Origin: an uncultured archaeon
GTDB lineage: Archaea > Asgardarchaeota > Lokiarchaeia > Sigyniarchaeales > SOKP01
DNA: 64,000 bases
Direction: 5' to 3'
NCBI GenBank assembly: GCA_964388035.1
Contig: CAYLZE010000001.1
Coordinates: 31,225 to 95,224 of the forward strand
A program made the position numbers and the translations under genes. Under the pieces are notes generated by a model. The model was not told the origin of the DNA, did not search any database, and saw only the letters and a list, made by a program, of their open reading frames with translations. Below, piece after piece: positions 4,345-13,182 of this stretch (the first letter of the stretch is position 1; the number at the start of each line of letters is the position of its first letter).

Positions 4345-5451
4345 ATGGCAGATTTATTAATCATAAATGAAGCTGGTCAATTACTATATAGTTGGCATGA
4401 AGGGGAAACTACGGGGGATGATACCCTCATAAGCGGGTTTTTGATCGCTTTAAATAGTTTTGCAACCATTGAGAGAGGAGAAGAAATTAAATCCTTGAAA
4501 TTAAAGGAAACTACCTTGATTTTCGAAAAATTTGAACAATATCTTCAGAAATTAGTATTCGTAATTACAACAAAATCCGAAGATCTAATCACGTTGCTTT
4601 CTGAACTTTTAAAAGATATTATTCGCAAATTTACGGAAGTCTATGAAACAGATTTAAATAAGCAATTTAACGGAGATGTTTCCATGTATAATAAATTTAC
4701 TCCCGTAATGGAAGAACTTTTAAGATCTTATGGCATGGATGAATTAACTGCATACAAAAACAATATTGATGATGAAAACACCATGAAGGCAGTGATGTTT
4801 ATAACACCTAAAGAGGGAGAGATTCTCTATATTCATGCCAAACAATATATCGATAAAAATAAAGTAAGTTATTTAATGCCTTTTATTCACACCTCTGCAT
4901 CTGTCTTCTTTAATAAAACCTTTAATCAGGAAATTAATCGAATTTTAATTCGAACTATTAAAGATGAAGGGCTCATGGTAGAAAGTAGAAGTCTCGTATT
5001 ACTCGCTACTCTCTATAAATTTCATGATGATTTTGAAGAACTCTTTGAGGCTCAGATTTCGTCTAAAAAACTAGATAAATACGTGAAAAATATAGAGAAG
5101 CTTGAAAAAGTATTTCAGAAAATAAATTGGAATTCTGCCATTTCCGAATTGTATATTGTCAATCCGTTAGGAAAACCACTTTTTCATTCATCACTAATTC
5201 ATTCACAACAACAACAAGGAATTCTCTTCCCGGAGCTCATTACAGTTTTAACAAGCTCAGAAAATTTGTCCAAGCAATTTTTCAACCGAGAATTATTTTT
5301 TTTTAGCATTTTGGGAAATCAAGAATTTGGGATTGCTTGCTTAAATTTTAAGGTATTTTATATGGTAATGTTATTTGATATTAAAAAGATGAACGATTTC
5401 CATTCCATTGAAATAGTTTGGAAAACATTATTGGAGGAAATCAATTTTTAA
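4345..5451 (+). CDS. Asgard-type longin-like domain protein with additional longin/roadblock-like repeats
   Basis: N-terminal LLIINEAGQLLY...LISGFLIALNSFA...FNGDVSMYNKF pattern; similar strand-turn units recur (MFITPKEGEILY, LYIVNPLGKPLF). Confidence 0.65.
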   Translation: MADLLIINEAGQLLYSWHEGETTGDDTLISGFLIALNSFATIERGEEIKSLKLKETTLIFEKFEQYLQKLVFVITTKSEDLITLLSELLKDIIRKFTEVYETDLNKQFNGDVSMYNKFTPVMEELLRSYGMDELTAYKNNIDDENTMKAVMFITPKEGEILYIHAKQYIDKNKVSYLMPFIHTSASVFFNKTFNQEINRILIRTIKDEGLMVESRSLVLLATLYKFHDDFEELFEAQISSKKLDKYVKNIEKLEKVFQKINWNSAISELYIVNPLGKPLFHSSLIHSQQQQGILFPELITVLTSSENLSKQFFNRELFFFSILGNQEFGIACLNFKVFYMVMLFDIKKMNDFHSIEIVWKTLLEEINF

Positions 5452-5774: not shown

Positions 5775-6776
5775 GTGAAATTTAAAATGTTTACACCTGA
5801 ACAAATAAAAGATGTATTAAATGAAAACTGTATAAATCTTCGATTTCATGCGAGAGGCGGTCAAGGAGGAGTTACCGCGTCCAACTTATGCGTCGAAGCG
5901 TTTCAAGGGTATGGCGTATGTCAACCAAGCTTTGGCGCTGAAAGAATGGGCTCCCCTACTGAAAGCTATGTAAGACTTTCCTTGAATGAAAATTTAGTTC
6001 GATCCAATGAACAAGTGTATGTTCCCCATTTTGTTTCTGTATTGGATCCCACGTTATTAACAGAGGTTGATGTAACCGCAGGAGTACCAAGTGGAGGATG
6101 GTTAATCGTAAATACTACCATGAATCAAGAAGAAATACAAGATTTGGTAAAGCGAAAGGACTTGAATGTCGCTACAGTAGATGCCTTAAACATCGCAATG
6201 GAAATCTTGGGAAGAAACATTACAAATACTATTATTTTAGGTGCCTTAATCCGTGTATCTTACCTCTTTTCCTTGGATCAACTTTCCGAAGCCATCATGA
6301 CAAGATTCGTGGGAGAAATAGCGGGAAAAAATATGGAAGCAGTGAAACGAGCTTATGATGAAGTATGCGTTTACGAAAGCGGAGTTCAACTTGATTTCAC
6401 CGTAGACTCTAAAATTCCTTGGCAACAAGTTCGACCTGGTTTGCCGGGATATAAAGAGCTTGATAAGTCCGGAGTATGGTATTGTGATGAAGATGTAATT
6501 GAATACGGAAGTAATCAAGTAAAAACGGGATCGTGGGGAGAATGGGATGTAATTTGGATTGAAGATAAATGCACGGATTGTGCCCTATGTTGGTATATTT
6601 GCCCCGATTTTGCCATCATGAGGAAAAAAGGAGATGATGGTCTGTGGCACATGGCAGGTATTGATTCTTATCATTGTAAATCTTGTTTAAATTGTCTCAA
6701 CATTTGTCCTGTAAATGCAATTGATAAAAAATTAAGACAAGGGCCAGCATCATGCGCTGCGCCAGAAAAAGCATAG
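5775..6776 (+). CDS. porC: 2-oxoacid:ferredoxin oxidoreductase gamma subunit fused to delta (2x[4Fe-4S] ferredoxin) subunit
   Basis: RFHARGGQGGVT, FGAERMGSP, NTIILGA (gamma); C-terminal CTDCALCWYICP and CKSCLNCLNICP (delta). Start could be ATG 5787. Confidence 0.92.
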   Translation: MKFKMFTPEQIKDVLNENCINLRFHARGGQGGVTASNLCVEAFQGYGVCQPSFGAERMGSPTESYVRLSLNENLVRSNEQVYVPHFVSVLDPTLLTEVDVTAGVPSGGWLIVNTTMNQEEIQDLVKRKDLNVATVDALNIAMEILGRNITNTIILGALIRVSYLFSLDQLSEAIMTRFVGEIAGKNMEAVKRAYDEVCVYESGVQLDFTVDSKIPWQQVRPGLPGYKELDKSGVWYCDEDVIEYGSNQVKTGSWGEWDVIWIEDKCTDCALCWYICPDFAIMRKKGDDGLWHMAGIDSYHCKSCLNCLNICPVNAIDKKLRQGPASCAAPEKA

Positions 6777-6786
6777 AGGTGGTATC

Positions 6787-8016
6787 ATGTCTATCGAACC
6801 TATGAAGTTATTCTTTAAAGAAATAAAAGAACCTGTCGAAACTGCGATGATAGGAAATTATGCAGTGGCTGGGGCAGTTACTCAAACGGATCCCGATGTA
6901 ATTTGTGCGTTTCCTATAACCCCACAAACTCAATCTGTAGAAGGTCTCTCGGATGTCGTTCACCAAGGAAGACTCAAGGCTGCTTTCGTGAATGTTGAAT
7001 CTGAACTGGCAGCAATAAGTTATTCTACTGCTGCGAGTGCTGCAGGTGCCAGAGCATTTACGGCGACCGCGTCTCAAGGTTTTTTATTGATGACAGAAGC
7101 CCTTCCCATGGCAGTGGGATGGCGCGTTCCTTTAACCATGATGATTTCAGCACGAGCTTTTAATTCTCCTAATTTATCTATTTGGAATTCATGGGAATTT
7201 ACCGAAGTAAATTCGGAATTGGGATGGAATTGCTTGGTCTCTGAAAATGTCCAAGAAACTTACGATGCAGCAATTATATCAGTTATGGTTTCTGAAGATT
7301 CCTTATTTCCCACCATGTTTGTCCACGATGGCTTTATCATCTCTCATTCCGTACAAAAACTCTGGCTCATCCCCGATGAAATTGTACGAAAAATGACACC
7401 AAAGAAACCCCGGCAAACGATTAATCCAGAAAATCCCGGAACATGGGGCGGAATCGTGACTCCGGATTTTTTCATGGAAGGTAGAAAAAAGTTAGATGAA
7501 GATAAAGAAGCGGTATTGGGCATCATGAAAAACTGCTTTAAAACGTTCGAAAAGGAGACGGGGCGCAAGTATGATCTAATTGAAACCTACAATCTTGATA
7601 ATTCTTCAAAAACAGCCATCATAACGATGGGGTCAATGTGTGGAAATATTATAAGTTGGATGACGAAAAATCCCGATATCGGCTTGATAAAAATTCGTGC
7701 CTTTCGTCCATTTCCCTATGCAGAATTGAGGAAAATCGTGGAAGAACACAATATTGAAAAGATCATCATCATTGAAAAATCAGATTCATTGAATGGAATG
7801 CTCCCTCCCTTTTCCATGTCGATTGCTAGCGCGTTATATCCCCTTGGAACTCTTTTCAGGAGCTTCATCGCGGGATTAGGTGGGCGAGATGTTACCCGGG
7901 ACGAATTTAATGTAGCTAAAAAGAAAATGGAAAAAGTAACGGACATGAATGGAAAATTATACATGTATTTAGGGGTTAGAGAAACAAAACAAAAAATTCA
8001 CGAGGTTGATGCATAA
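6787..8016 (+). CDS. porA: 2-oxoacid:ferredoxin oxidoreductase alpha subunit
   Basis: GNYAVA, AFPITPQT, VESELAA, FTATASQG, DGFIISH, FRPFP, GLGGRD; preceded by SD-like GAGGTGG. Confidence 0.95.
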   Translation: MSIEPMKLFFKEIKEPVETAMIGNYAVAGAVTQTDPDVICAFPITPQTQSVEGLSDVVHQGRLKAAFVNVESELAAISYSTAASAAGARAFTATASQGFLLMTEALPMAVGWRVPLTMMISARAFNSPNLSIWNSWEFTEVNSELGWNCLVSENVQETYDAAIISVMVSEDSLFPTMFVHDGFIISHSVQKLWLIPDEIVRKMTPKKPRQTINPENPGTWGGIVTPDFFMEGRKKLDEDKEAVLGIMKNCFKTFEKETGRKYDLIETYNLDNSSKTAIITMGSMCGNIISWMTKNPDIGLIKIRAFRPFPYAELRKIVEEHNIEKIIIIEKSDSLNGMLPPFSMSIASALYPLGTLFRSFIAGLGGRDVTRDEFNVAKKKMEKVTDMNGKLYMYLGVRETKQKIHEVDA

Positions 8017-9134
8017 TGTCAAAACCAGAAAATAATATCATTAACATGGAAGAAATTCTCGAGAGAAAGGAAAAAAGTAATGTCTTGTTTGTCAATTATG
8101 ATAATGAGGCGTTCATGAATACTGGAAATTGAAAAAAAAATATTTTTTCAAACAGAGTTCAAGAATCAGGCGGAACGCCTCCACATGCATCCACGACCAC
8201 GGGTCCTGGGGGAGAAAAGATTCCTGGGAAGGTCGGTGTCAAGCAAGATTTAGTGACTCCATTCAGCTTTTTTGGAACTAAATCACTATTTCTGGCCACG
8301 GCAAATCCAGCTTATCCCATGGATTTAATGGGAAAAGTAATGGAAGCATTAAAGACGAATGGTTCCGGTTTTATACAAATCTTCAGCGATTGCATGCGTG
8401 GGTGGCGGCACGGCGCGGAAGACACGCTTAATGTCTCAAAATTGGCGACAGACTGTGGTTATTGGCCCCTTTTTACCATTCGAGTTAAAAATGCCAAGCC
8501 TGTATATTCTTACTATCGTGGATTAGATGTAGATAAAGAAAAGTTTGAACAATTCTTGAAATCAATGGGTAGATTTAAACATTTATTTCGTCCTAAATTT
8601 ATGGAAGAGGAAATAGATGAGATTATCTACTACACGGAACAACGAAATGCCCGATTAAAAGCTTTAATACAAGTGTTTGGAGCTGAAAAACCTGTAGATA
8701 TTTATAGAATCAACCGAAAGAAATTAGAGCCTCAATACCATCTCCAACCAGGTCACGGTCTTTGTCCGGGATGCGGTGCGGGCATGTTCTTGAACCAAAT
8801 GGCAACCGCAGCCACTCAAGTTGCGGGGAAAAATATTATTTACGTGAATAATACCAGCTGTTCCGAGGTTTCCACTTCAAAAGACAATGTATCTTCATGG
8901 AACGTTCCATGGGTGCATCATCTTTTTGAATCAGGGGCTACTATTGCGGAAGCTATTAGTACAACGTATAAAATTCTCAAATTTAAAAATATATATCAAG
9001 GAGAAGTGCCCTACGTCATACATATCGGAGGAGATGGCTCAACTTATGATATAGGTTTCCAATTCCTAAAATCGGCTCTCGTTAGGACAAGCAGTTTTGT
9101 AGAAATGAATGAATATTTAGCAAATCAAAAATAA
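8016..9134 (+). CDS. porB: 2-oxoacid:ferredoxin oxidoreductase beta subunit; circularly permuted and interrupted by a 30-nt in-frame insert containing TGA (8130-8132)
   Basis: ATG 8016 overlaps the porA stop (TAATG) and is in frame with ORF 8253-9134. Reads MSKPEN...NVLFVNYDNEAFMNTG[N*KKNIFSNR]VQESGGTPPHASTTTGPG...SDCMRGWR...GRFKHL...PGHGLCPGCG...NTSCSEV...GGDGSTYDIG. Confidence 0.88.
8128..8157 (+). other. Candidate bulge-helix-loop mRNA intron (30 nt) in porB
   Basis: 9-bp hairpin TTGAAAAAA(8129-8137)/TTTTTTCAA(8143-8151), AAA bulge 8126-8128, CTG(G)/(A)CAG central helix, exon helix TGAA/TTCA; removal restores MNTGIQES. Confidence 0.55.
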
Positions 9135-9336: not shown

Positions 9337-11910
9337 TTAATTAAAAAATTCTTTAACGATTAACTGGCATAATTTTACCATTTTTTGACCTAAATCTTGT
9401 TCATCTTGCGAATTAGTTAAGATCCAATCTTTTTGGTATAATTTATCCAAATATTCCCCCTTTGCATCAATAGAGAAAGCATATACTTTAAAGCGTTTCC
9501 TAACGTCATGAATATCATTCATGGCTTCGTTTAAGCCATAATTCCCATCTCCCGCAGGCTGCCCATCCGAAATAACAATTATAAAGTCGTCCTTTTGTAG
9601 TTTATTAGCTTCATGTTTTATTGAAATCCCGTCTAAATTTTGACAATCATTAGCATGGCTTCCAAATTTGTCCATCTTCTTAGGATTCAAGGGTTCATCA
9701 AAATTTTTTACCAAGATATTTAATGCATCATGTTTTCCCGTGAATAGAACGATCCTTGTATTTGCTAGATATTCTAAAGCTTCACATAGCAATACAAGAG
9801 CAATTTTTGCCGCTTTCATCTTAACCCCTTTCATACTCCCGGAAATATCTACTATAATCAATAATCTTAACTCTCTCTCAACTGTTTTCTTTGTAAAACA
9901 TTGTTTATATCTATAATCACTGGTGACTGCCTTAATTAATTTGCTATTTAGCCGTCCTCGCTTCTGAAAAGAATCGTAGTCTCTCTGATTTTTTAATTCT
10001 GCAAAAACTCTTTTAATTTTTTTTATTTGGTTATCATAATTAATTTTCATTTGAGCTAAAGTTAAATCGACAGGTATCATATTTTCTTTGTCAATCGTTG
10101 TTTCAATTACCTTTCTATCCTTAAAATCTCCTCCTATTTTAAGTACGCGCATCCCTAATTCTAATGTTTTTAATCGTCTATCCATCTCTTCCTCAGCTTT
10201 TTTAAGATTGTCTGCGATCTTTTTTAGTACTTCGACTTTGAATCTATGTCTTTTATCGTTGAGCAATTCCTCAATGTCAATTTTCTCATCTTTTTCATCA
10301 AATAGCTCTAATTGCTTAAAAATGGTTTCAAGTTGTTTGGAATTGAGCTTATCAACGCCTAATTTCTCACAGAGTCTTTCTTCAAATAAATCCAGGTCAG
10401 TTTTAGGATCTCCTTCACTTAGTCCATTATTTTTTATCTCATCTAACTCCATGAAAATATCTTTGAGGTCTTCACAGGAAATATCGCAATTCTCGAAGGT
10501 TTTATTTAATTCTTTAGATAAGTTCTCTAAATTAGACCCATAGTCTAAAGAGCCATTATTACTTCTTAAAAAATCCTCTTTTTGTTTTAATTCCTGGATA
10601 TCCGAAATTAAATCATCTAATACCCCGTCTTCCAGATTTAAATCATCAAATTTCTCACGTAGGTTTTTTTTTAGCTCCTCTAATGCTTCTCTACTTTCAA
10701 AATGATTATTTAATAGATCTTGATTTTTTTCAATTTCTTGTAGGAATTCCTTCACTTGATCTGAATTTATCTCATTTTTATCGTGTGTTTCATTCCAACT
10801 TCTGGTGAATTCATCAATATCTTTTTCATAGGACATTTCCTCAGATTGAGATCCATAATAAGTACCATTCTCTCTAAAATTAGCTAGATCTTCTTCAATT
10901 TTCTCTAAATCTTTTGTAGATAAATCATATTCCTCCAAGTTTTTTATCAAATCTTCACTGTATTCTTGTAATTCCGTTTTTTCCTTGGTTAGCTTGTCAA
11001 ATGTATTATTCTCAAATTGTTGGCTTTCATTCCAACGGGTTAAAAGATCAAAGTCTTCCATTGGGTTGCCCTGCTTTGGATTATCTTCATAGTTATAATA
11101 TATTTCTCCATCCTCAATTTCAGATTCCATATCCTCCTCCCCTTCCTCAGGAACCATCGGGATAGGATAAGATCTCGATCCTCCGCCTGAACTAGACCCT
11201 GAACTTCCAGGAACACCTCTAACTTGAGGAAATTGATTAACTTTTCGTTCGATTTTTTTTGGAAAATATTTCTTTAAGATATTGCAAAGTTTATAGACGG
11301 AAAGTAAGGTCACGTTAGGAGTACGGAATTTTATGATAAACTTTTTGATATTAACAACGGAATTCCAATCTGAAATACTAATCTTAAATGGACCTAAATT
11401 AGGAATAGTCAAAAATCCTTCAAAATCCTCCATGAACAAATAGATGTAAGTTACAATATCTTTTAATTTTACAATTCTCGATTTAATTATGGGGATTAGT
11501 GTCAACTCTAAATTTCTCAAGTTTCTATAAAAACCGGGAAACTTTTTATCATTTATTGCATTAATCCTAACGTCTTCTACTACATTGACTAATTGTCGTA
11601 CAAATCCCGAAGGTAAATCAAATTTCTTAGAAACTACCGCGACTAACTTGGCAAAATTTAATTCGAATGACCCATAACCCACATGTCCTGCTTCATGGGC
11701 AACCAATCCCTGACTTCCTTTGATATCTTCTTTATACTTTTGTGGAATATAAATAATTCTACAGTCAGTAAAAGCAGCATAATCGTTTCGTAAATAAGAA
11801 ATGAGAATATCTTTATTACCACTGATTCTCTTTGCAGTATTTGTAAGGGCTAGTAAATCAGTATTTACATCTCGCTCAAATAAATCAAATAATCCTAATT
11901 CTTTAAACAT
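9337..11910 (-). CDS. VWA domain protein (partner of MoxR-type AAA+ ATPase)
   Basis: C-terminal MIDAS DISGS...ISDGQP; N-terminal HEAGH and NVVEDVRI (CobT/NorD-like N-terminus); long acidic helical linker. Confidence 0.85.
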   Translation of the reverse strand: MFKELGLFDLFERDVNTDLLALTNTAKRISGNKDILISYLRNDYAAFTDCRIIYIPQKYKEDIKGSQGLVAHEAGHVGYGSFELNFAKLVAVVSKKFDLPSGFVRQLVNVVEDVRINAINDKKFPGFYRNLRNLELTLIPIIKSRIVKLKDIVTYIYLFMEDFEGFLTIPNLGPFKISISDWNSVVNIKKFIIKFRTPNVTLLSVYKLCNILKKYFPKKIERKVNQFPQVRGVPGSSGSSSGGGSRSYPIPMVPEEGEEDMESEIEDGEIYYNYEDNPKQGNPMEDFDLLTRWNESQQFENNTFDKLTKEKTELQEYSEDLIKNLEEYDLSTKDLEKIEEDLANFRENGTYYGSQSEEMSYEKDIDEFTRSWNETHDKNEINSDQVKEFLQEIEKNQDLLNNHFESREALEELKKNLREKFDDLNLEDGVLDDLISDIQELKQKEDFLRSNNGSLDYGSNLENLSKELNKTFENCDISCEDLKDIFMELDEIKNNGLSEGDPKTDLDLFEERLCEKLGVDKLNSKQLETIFKQLELFDEKDEKIDIEELLNDKRHRFKVEVLKKIADNLKKAEEEMDRRLKTLELGMRVLKIGGDFKDRKVIETTIDKENMIPVDLTLAQMKINYDNQIKKIKRVFAELKNQRDYDSFQKRGRLNSKLIKAVTSDYRYKQCFTKKTVERELRLLIIVDISGSMKGVKMKAAKIALVLLCEALEYLANTRIVLFTGKHDALNILVKNFDEPLNPKKMDKFGSHANDCQNLDGISIKHEANKLQKDDFIIVISDGQPAGDGNYGLNEAMNDIHDVRKRFKVYAFSIDAKGEYLDKLYQKDWILTNSQDEQDLGQKMVKLCQLIVKEFFN

Positions 11911-11940
11911 GATCCCTCAATCATTCCATGTATTCTGTCT

Positions 11941-13182
11941 TTAAAGTACGGGAAATGTTGTTCTCATCAATTCTGTTAATTCCGCATTCATTTTTCGATA
12001 TAGCCATTTAATGTATTTTAAAGTGATATTGCCAGCATAGATATGAGTTTTCCCAGTTTGCTGCTTGTACATATTATGATAACCTAACTCTTCTGTTAGT
12101 TTTATGTATTCCTGCAAGATTTTCTTATTATATGACCAGATCCATTCCAACGGAGTCCAAATTATTTTCCCGCTTCGATTCGTAATGGATCTATAATTGT
12201 TGTTTTTTCTATAATTATGTAACCATAACCGCATTTCTCCTATTACGTTAGAGTTTTTGTCTGATTCCTCTAATTTAATGGAACTTTGAATCTCTTCCTT
12301 AACCTCTTTTTTAACTATTAATTCATCCTTGAGTTTTTTTTCCAGCATCTTCCCATCGAGTATCATCGCAATGCTTTTCTTTTCCTCAGTATTTTCAGCT
12401 AATCTATTAATGATAGCATTTTCGATATTGCACTTGATATATTGTGGCTCCATACGGGTTATTAGATAGCAGAAATTTACAATCAGTCGTGTGGAAAAGA
12501 TTTTGGTTAAGGAGAAATCTTCGAGGGCTTGTTTTCTAATTTCTCTTGCCGCATCTACCACGACCTCAGCAATTCGAGAACTGCAGCCTGAAATCCGAGA
12601 AGCAATGAGAATCTCCTTGTTTTTATCGGGATAATTTATCTCGGGGCTTGCAATAAAGCGATCATCAAATGCTTCCTGCAATTTATTAATTCCTATCACC
12701 CCCTTATTCATGGTACCAATGACAATCAACTTGCTTTCTGAGTTAAGTTCATACTTTTCAAATCCTTTGGAGATGAGGTTGATATGGTTCTCTGATAAGA
12801 GTGAATTAAGAGAAATCTGTTCACTCTCTCTAATTGCATTAACTTCATTTATAATTACAAAAGAAATTCCATTCTCATTCGCAGATTTTATTGCTAATGT
12901 GAGTGGACCATAATTAAATAGTGTATTTCCCTTGATCAATTCCCAATTCCCTTCTATATCTCTTCTGTCAAGATCAGGAGAGCCATCAATGATAAAATAA
13001 GGTGCATTAAAGTCCTTTGCTAAAGTTATTGCTAATAACGTCTTGCCAGTTCCAGGAGGCCCATGCAATAGAATACCTGCACACCTCCCTGGTTCCAATG
13101 ATTCTATTAAACATTTTAAATAATCAAATTCGTCTTTTTGTTGAATATATTTTGGAGCTTTAATTATTGAAGCTTCTAACAT
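11941..13182 (-). CDS. MoxR-family (CbbQ/NirQ/NorQ-like) AAA+ ATPase with C-terminal extension
   Basis: Walker A GPPGTGKT, Walker B IINEVN, GTMN, AFDDRF, STR sensor 2; upstream of a VWA gene. Confidence 0.88.
   Translation of the reverse strand: MLEASIIKAPKYIQQKDEFDYLKCLIESLEPGRCAGILLHGPPGTGKTLLAITLAKDFNAPYFIIDGSPDLDRRDIEGNWELIKGNTLFNYGPLTLAIKSANENGISFVIINEVNAIRESEQISLNSLLSENHINLISKGFEKYELNSESKLIVIGTMNKGVIGINKLQEAFDDRFIASPEINYPDKNKEILIASRISGCSSRIAEVVVDAAREIRKQALEDFSLTKIFSTRLIVNFCYLITRMEPQYIKCNIENAIINRLAENTEEKKSIAMILDGKMLEKKLKDELIVKKEVKEEIQSSIKLEESDKNSNVIGEMRLWLHNYRKNNNYRSITNRSGKIIWTPLEWIWSYNKKILQEYIKLTEELGYHNMYKQQTGKTHIYAGNITLKYIKWLYRKMNAELTELMRTTFPVL

Follow-up and report, generated by a model that had tools for sequence, protein, structure and literature searches.

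A Predicted tRNA-Type Intron in the porB Message of a Promethearchaeote

The por cluster and the interrupted porB gene

The window analyzed here, a stretch of 64,000 nucleotides, comes from a genome labeled G000, and its relatives carry the labels G001, G004, and G280 to G282. It contains a cluster of three por genes whose last member codes for a circularly permuted beta subunit of a pyruvate-type 2-oxoacid:ferredoxin oxidoreductase (Table 1). In ortholog numbering, PorB residues 22-193 correspond to positions 118-282 of PDB 9BT4_C, and residues 226-347 to positions 3-115; the half after the GDG motif stands first, and the new termini lie inside the GDG...N TPP motif. This permuted order is normal in the family (it is matched by 107 of 135 genomes), is kept across the order, and is separate from the insert described below. 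Circularization at the RNA level was considered as the origin of the permutation and rejected on inspection, given that the additional peptides at the termini are conserved and that an open linker connects the two halves. Two canonical porB paralogs are also present in G000, on contigs C5 and C10. Upstream of the por cluster, positions 4345-5451 of the window encode a protein of 368 aa whose N-terminal longin domain (PF19036) scores just below the cut-off, and a gene pair for a MoxR/CbbQ-like AAA ATPase and a VWA-domain protein on the minus strand (9337-13182) is convergent with porB.

From its ATG to its final stop, the porB frame contains a single internal stop, the TGA at 8130-8132, and translation of an unspliced message ends after 38 aa. 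Reading through this region gives ...YDNEAFMNTG-N*KKNIFSNR-VQESGG, an excess of 10 codons inside the motif YDNEAFMNTG-IQES. The first-pass annotation had counted exactly 30 extra nts between intact flanks, a count confirmed by 94 distinct insert-free ortholog segments, which read MNTGIQES or MNTGIQQS. Removal of the insert leaves an ORF of 362 aa that keeps all five Cys residues (SDC, DCG, CPGC, and TSC). No match was obtained in a Pfam search with the read-through porB. The size of the insert, 30 nts, rules out a group I or group II catalytic core, which takes hundreds of nts. Its presence in DNA, which the first-pass annotation had proposed to check with reads, is backed by Logan contigs from two public DNA runs, both of which cross it with no gap: the contig of run X1, possibly the source sample, covers 7404-8377, and that of run X2 covers 7985-8211 without any differing letter.

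Table 1. Features of the por cluster and of the porB insert (window positions), and ortholog-verified inserts in other genes of the same genome (positions or contigs as given)
Feature	Position	Strand	Remarks
porC-porD (gamma-delta) fusion	5775..6776	+	333 aa; first gene of cluster
porA (alpha subunit)	6787..8016	+	stop overlaps porB ATG
porB (circularly permuted beta subunit)	8016..9134	+	third gene of cluster
porB exon 1	8016..8127	+	37 codons and first base of Ile codon; ends ...AAT ACT GGA A
Exon helix arm UGAA	8116..8119	+	pairs with 8158-8161 in predicted fold; relaxed, bulge-helix-loop-like
Central helix, exon strand CUGG	8122..8125	+	pairs with 8152-8155 (ACAG): 3 Watson-Crick pairs and G.A
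5' 3-nt bulge AA^A	8126..8128	+	predicted cut 8127/8128; cut rule from PMC2738675
30-nt BHB-type intron (predicted)	8128..8157	+	rank 1/2450 among structure-blind deletions
Intron hairpin	8129..8151	+	9-bp stem 8129-8137/8143-8151, 5-nt loop; contains UGA 8130-8132
Central helix, intron strand ACAG	8152..8155	+	relatives have GCAG or CUAG
3' bulge or loop AG^U	8156..8158	+	predicted cut 8157/8158
porB exon 2	8158..9134	+	spliced ORF of 362 aa, five Cys
Ubiquitin-conjugating E2 insert	L164:634-663 (C38)		BHB, ortholog-verified; also in G001 at 31 nts
Roadblock/LC7 insert	L165:716-747 (C66)		BHB, ortholog-verified
AMP phosphorylase, NAD synthetase (nadE), cinA-like, alcohol dehydrogenase, SCP2, and FGGY kinase inserts	C32, C45, C47, C50, C89, C149		28-30-nt BHB inserts, ortholog-verified

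Boundaries, predicted fold, and inserts in related genomes

The ends of the insert were located by scoring all deletions of 10-59 nts within 24 nts of the site (2,450 in total) against the orthologs, with structure ignored. The single best of these deletions removes 8128-8157 and coincides with the canonical BHB cut. The Ile at the insert site is invariant: 93 of the 94 distinct insert-free segments read MNTGIQES and one reads MNTGIQQS. The orthologs are mostly labeled Promethearchaeota or Promethearchaeia, which places the host among the Loki-type Asgard archaea. Among the cuts tried, the BHB register alone rebuilds both this Ile and MNTGIQES, and it is also the only cut yielding Ile in G280. 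Cuts after 8127 and 8157, as originally proposed, hold up in that they give the family consensus NTGIQ, and the other option considered at that time, removal of 8127-8156 to give NTGVQ, is disfavored because Ile is invariant in the orthologs. The predicted junction, with 8127 joined to 8158, is ACTGGAATTCAAGAATCAGGC.

The fold described in the first-pass annotation (a 9-bp stem, an AAA bulge, CUG/CAG with one G.A pair, and an exon helix UGAA/UUCA) proved to be the minimum-energy fold. Its stability gives a z-score of -3.95 for 8100-8180 (0 of 200 shuffles) and of -2.85 for 8116-8165. In the strict BHB register the exon helix of G000 has 1 bp only, and the insert falls outside the strict BHB form (4/4 central pairs and an exon helix of at least 2 bp), having the relaxed form only.

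Screening 400 genomes of the phylum for the pattern returned three further inserts at the same site, of 30 nts in G281 and G280 and of 31 nts, shifting the frame, in G004; these genomes fall in two other genera. The reversed-pattern control over the 400 genomes gave no matches, and a pattern scan of metagenomes returned, among the matches listed, chance matches and no porB locus. Identity to the G000 insert ranges from 27/30 (G281) down to 17/30. The 9-bp stem is retained in all four site-1 alleles, with 36 of 36 pairs kept, a count to be read as that of a few inserts sharing descent rather than as independent tests; the G004 stem has a 1-nt bulge, and its alignment requires a structure-based gap. 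Four stem pairs are altered on both sides in the MAFFT alignment, and the central helix joins CUGG with ACAG, ACAG, GCAG, or CUAG. The expectation that inserts at this site would vary among relatives while keeping their pairing was thus borne out, in length (30-31 nts) as well as in sequence. Furthermore, G282 contains a different 31-nt insert (L205:7409-7439), located 6 nts downstream of site 1. Its central helix is 4/4, both of its bulges have 3 nts, its 9-bp stem is perfect, and its predicted splicing restores IQES across a split codon.

The cut register, with a 3-nt bulge on either side of a four-position central helix and a cut after base 2 of each bulge, is found in all five porB inserts, and BHB splicing would lead to the consensus product in each. 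The central helix has a mismatch in G000 (G.A) and in G280 (G.G) and 4/4 pairs in G004 and G282; the minimum-energy fold of G280 has a competing exon-exon pairing in place of the BHB. For each of the five inserts, none of 3,000 shuffled inserts was as good; among random coding positions, 45 of 20,000 (0.2%) passed the BHB test; and none of 108 cuts displaced by 1-6 nts passed. These figures represent effect sizes rather than formal P values since the pass thresholds were fixed after the data had been seen and the alleles are related. The mirror geometry never passed at the porB insert sites.

Proposed splicing and competing explanations

The exact ends, the conserved pairing, and the intact frame support the candidate mRNA intron of the first-pass annotation, and we consider it very likely, judging from sequence comparison, that the porB insert is a tRNA-type mRNA intron (BHB, relaxed form) spliced by EndA and RtcB. 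The transcript is predicted to form a helix of exon CUGG and intron ACAG with a 3-nt bulge at either end, capped by the 9-bp hairpin. The (alpha-beta)2 EndA of the host would then cleave each bulge behind its second base, following the rule for cbf5 and tRNA introns, and RtcB would ligate the exons, which would restore the split codon A|TT and with it the motif at the TPP site. The full-length PorB would be translated from the spliced message, and the unspliced message would yield a dead peptide of 38 aa.

Machinery of this kind is encoded in G000, which has two EndA genes (alpha, L035; beta-like, L036) and one RtcB gene (L037, E 9e-166); the sequences of the two EndA proteins suggest an (alpha-beta)2 enzyme of broad specificity. 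The best solved relative of L035 is the EndA of A. pernix (APE). The catalytic triad Y143/H151/K182 of L035 aligns with APE Y125/H133/K164, the recognition residues R175 and W199 align with APE R157 and W183, and K60/R62 of a Crenarchaea-type specificity loop align with APE K44/R46. In A. pernix EndA, it is this loop that allows relaxed and bulge-helix-loop substrates to be cleaved, and K44 is required for this (PMC3241643). The loop of L035 fits the imperfect central helix of the porB insert, and the host EndA may well act on porB RNA. With regard to tRNAs, ARAGORN reported only 22 genes, 15 of them with introns, in this 97%-complete genome, and additional interrupted tRNA genes were probably missed by the program.

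Several other explanations were weighed against splicing. The insert might be an inactivating hairpin insertion that has left porB a pseudogene, or a message too poorly spliced to matter, with the paralogs covering its function. This is improbable, even though the two canonical paralogs mean that porB cannot be called essential, the central helix is imperfect, and approximately 100 orthologs are free of the insert. The gene has no further lesion. In exon 2, G000 differs from its insert-free sister G001 by 137 synonymous and 42 amino-acid differences, compared with 132/53 and 114/25 for insert-free pairs, and its branch length is 0.11 versus 0.091, so that both measures are as in insert-free alleles. 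Moreover, compensatory change preserves the stem across inserts with only 17/30 identity, and the exact BHB register recurs at two porB sites and in other genes. The first-pass annotation had named insert-free relatives together with relaxed selection on this copy as a pattern that would speak against an intron; instead, relatives carry inserts and exon 2 is undecayed. Removal by another route, through an enzyme other than EndA or through DNA excision as a tiny mobile element, is about equally improbable. It would agree with the patchy distribution described below and with the likeness of the G000 and G281 inserts, 27/30 identical across genera at a synonymous codon identity of only 43%, which hints at mobility. 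However, the geometry is that of an EndA substrate and its mirror image never passes, no target duplication is present, and the DNA contigs examined contain no joined form, a weak argument given that contigs drop rare variants.

Bypass, readthrough, and assembly error, all raised in the first-pass annotation, are contradicted by the data. Programmed ribosomal bypass with GGA as take-off and AGA as landing codon has even less to recommend it than the two explanations above. All four site-1 inserts do have a preceding GGA, an AGA at the landing position, and a hairpin-enclosed stop. In the bypass of T4 gene 60, take-off and landing codons are matched and the stop lies directly beside the take-off codon, whereas the codons here are unmatched (GGA/AGA and CAA/GAA) and the stop is not adjacent to the take-off codon. 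Skipping whole codons would give V, V, L, and I at site 1 (V in G000 and G281, L in G280), where the orthologs have an invariant I, and K at the G282 site, where they have E or Q; in addition, the AG of AGA is already accounted for by pairing with exon CU. UGA readthrough or selenocysteine insertion, which would leave a 10-aa insert in the protein, is hardly credible. In the three 30-nt alleles the frame is kept and the TGA falls at one common position, but readthrough is excluded as a general route because the 31-nt alleles at the same motif, those of G004 and G282, carry TAA/TAG. Besides, the 30-nt alleles would add different peptides (KKNIFSNR, RNNLFSNR, and KSLPLSGR), each interrupting an invariant motif of the cofactor site, and the inserts in other genes carry several stop types. 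The least probable explanation of all is an assembly error, for which one could point to a 9-A homopolymer and to a metagenome assembly with a contamination estimate of 7%; independent contigs of two runs cross the insert unchanged, and three other genomes hold homologous inserts.

As for the role of the predicted intron, the earlier suggestion that it could gate enzyme expression is unsupported, with approximately 100 orthologs lacking the insert. It is most likely a tolerated, semi-mobile passenger that selection keeps spliceable, rather than a regulator.

Similar inserts in other genes, known systems, and distribution

Besides porB, eight other G000 genes contain 28-32-nt inserts in conserved stretches when compared with close orthologs (Table 1), and in these no structure-blind deletion scores better than the BHB cut, which shares the top rank, although their initial choice was made partly by predicted structure. 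E2 and roadblock, both eukaryotic-signature genes, were identified by Pfam and the other six by motif. Five same-site inserts found by homology in relatives of these genes fold as BHB too. Five more genes of G000 likely contain BHB inserts, namely pyrG, thiolase, ACAD, lsrF, and an unnamed gene (on C37, C109, C4, C63, and C65, respectively), and in each of them the BHB cut opens the frame. The genome would thus have about 14 such inserts, porB included. Structure-only scans were not used for this count because they return BHB and mirror geometry in similar numbers, with a small excess at 27-33 nts and a flat length histogram. A paralog-based census with free boundaries gave 8 BHB versus 6 mirror cases; close orthologs are needed. 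In G281, the nadE match (L175) is approximately 39 nts longer than in sister genomes, with no stop and away from the site used in G000; it may contain an in-frame insert at another place in nadE. The small contigs C197, C200, and C204 are apparently far GC-richer than the genome average of 33% and are probable contamination.

Routine splicing of numerous protein-coding messages by the tRNA endonuclease and ligase is probable in Promethearchaeia. If about 14 genes of one Asgard genome need splicing, among them genes of metabolic enzymes as well as those of a ubiquitin E2 and a roadblock protein, mRNA splicing would be routine in the lineage, and annotation would wrongly present these genes as pseudogenes or as truncated ORFs, with consequences for metabolic reconstructions.

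The statement that spliced mRNA introns are rarely documented in archaea agrees with the searchable papers, which give cbf5 as the confirmed case within a coding sequence and add one intron in a 5' UTR (PMC2738675, PMC7714728); papers also mention predictions, still unconfirmed, of BHB introns in genes other than cbf5. According to PMC2738675, in which Watanabe 2002 and Yoshinari 2006 are cited, the cbf5 pre-mRNA intron occurs in Desulfurococcales and Sulfolobales and is cut between the second and third bulge bases. Like the inserts described here, cbf5 introns are short (16-44 nts, compared with 28-32 in G000) and ORF-less, have a relaxed BHB with a helix that is often not strict (they are also called 'unconventional'), go with a hetero-oligomeric EndA, and split a codon between its first and second base within a conserved motif (PMC2738675). 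They differ in being confined to one site of one gene, in their descent from a single ancestor (with some losses), and in having been verified by cDNA (PMC2738675), whereas the predicted porB intron interrupts a metabolic gene in a promethearchaeote, occurs at two sites and scattered on the tree, and is one of about 14 such inserts in one genome. The BHB intron of HVO_1309 in Haloferax volcanii is an EndA substrate on an mRNA, as proposed here for porB; it is located in the 5' UTR, with no frame at stake, and is associated with a homodimeric-type enzyme and cleavage shown in vitro (PMC7714728). Non-canonical tRNA introns of Asgard archaea resemble the predicted porB intron in motif and enzyme type and have been gained repeatedly, as the porB intron may have been, but are confined to tRNA genes (PMC11291895; bioRxiv 10.64898/2026.10.13.758758); the preprint focuses on Jordiarchaeia and Atabeyarchaeia, and the word 'mRNA' is absent from it (bioRxiv 10.64898/2026.10.13.758758). 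In the searchable literature, which consists mostly of papers outside subscription, no report of BHB introns in Asgard mRNAs was found. The porB insert is very probably a spliced BHB mRNA intron that differs from the known ones in host, gene range, number, and patchiness. In eukaryotes, an endonuclease and a tRNA ligase excise a short intron from XBP1/HAC1 and thereby open a frame, with IRE1 cutting at two stem-loops under regulation by stress. The endonuclease-ligase scheme predicted for porB is similar, and nothing observed for porB points to regulation.

Of the 107 family genomes that have the gene, 5 carry the predicted porB intron, which occupies two different sites. On the protein tree, the four site-1 alleles are scattered, each beside insert-free sisters, which takes four changes, at least three of them forced by strong branches; repeated gain and many losses fit this tree alike. 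Transfer between genera is hinted at by the identity of the G000 and G281 inserts despite near-saturated synonymous sites. In a comparison aimed at co-conversion of the flanks, G000 shares 12 of 15 codons near the site with G004 and 11 of 16 with G281, and insert-free pairs share approximately 50% (maximum 80%).

A free-standing nuclease-like gene adjoins porB, or the porA-porB pair, in two of the five intron alleles. In G280, a 962-aa zinc-ribbon/endonuclease ORF (L210:3160-6048; PHROG 559, HNH endonuclease, E 4e-45) lies immediately upstream of the intron-bearing porB; an N6-methylase-like gene is found near this ORF, and porA is missing from the stretch. In G282, a 798-aa GIY-YIG-like/wHTH ORF (L205:3452-5848; motifs recognized by eye only) precedes porA-porB at the usual place of porC-D. 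No nuclease-like gene lies beside porB in G000, G004, or G281, whose operons are intact; the window contains none, and G000 has no homolog of either nuclease. In phages, collaborative homing pairs a free-standing endonuclease with an ORF-less intron, and the arrangement in G280 and G282 resembles this, unlike that in the other three genomes. Free-standing nucleases of homing type could possibly help the porB intron to arrive or spread, which we offer as a lead. A combined reading, also tentative, is that routine mRNA splicing in Promethearchaeia serves a mobile, genome-wide, non-spliceosomal class of ~30-nt introns that target conserved codons of active sites, cross genera, and are assisted by nucleases; if it were true in full, the archaeal phylum closest to eukaryotes would possess a non-spliceosomal mRNA intron system. 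With two neighboring sites, insert-free sisters, and adjacent nuclease genes, porB makes the arrival of BHB introns directly testable. Four genomes considered as carriers of a truncated porB (G180, G278, G189, and G267) were rejected as cases of contig ends or gaps; in two of them, G189 (L208) and G278 (L206), a second partial porB 3' end was observed 1-2.5 kb downstream of the gene.
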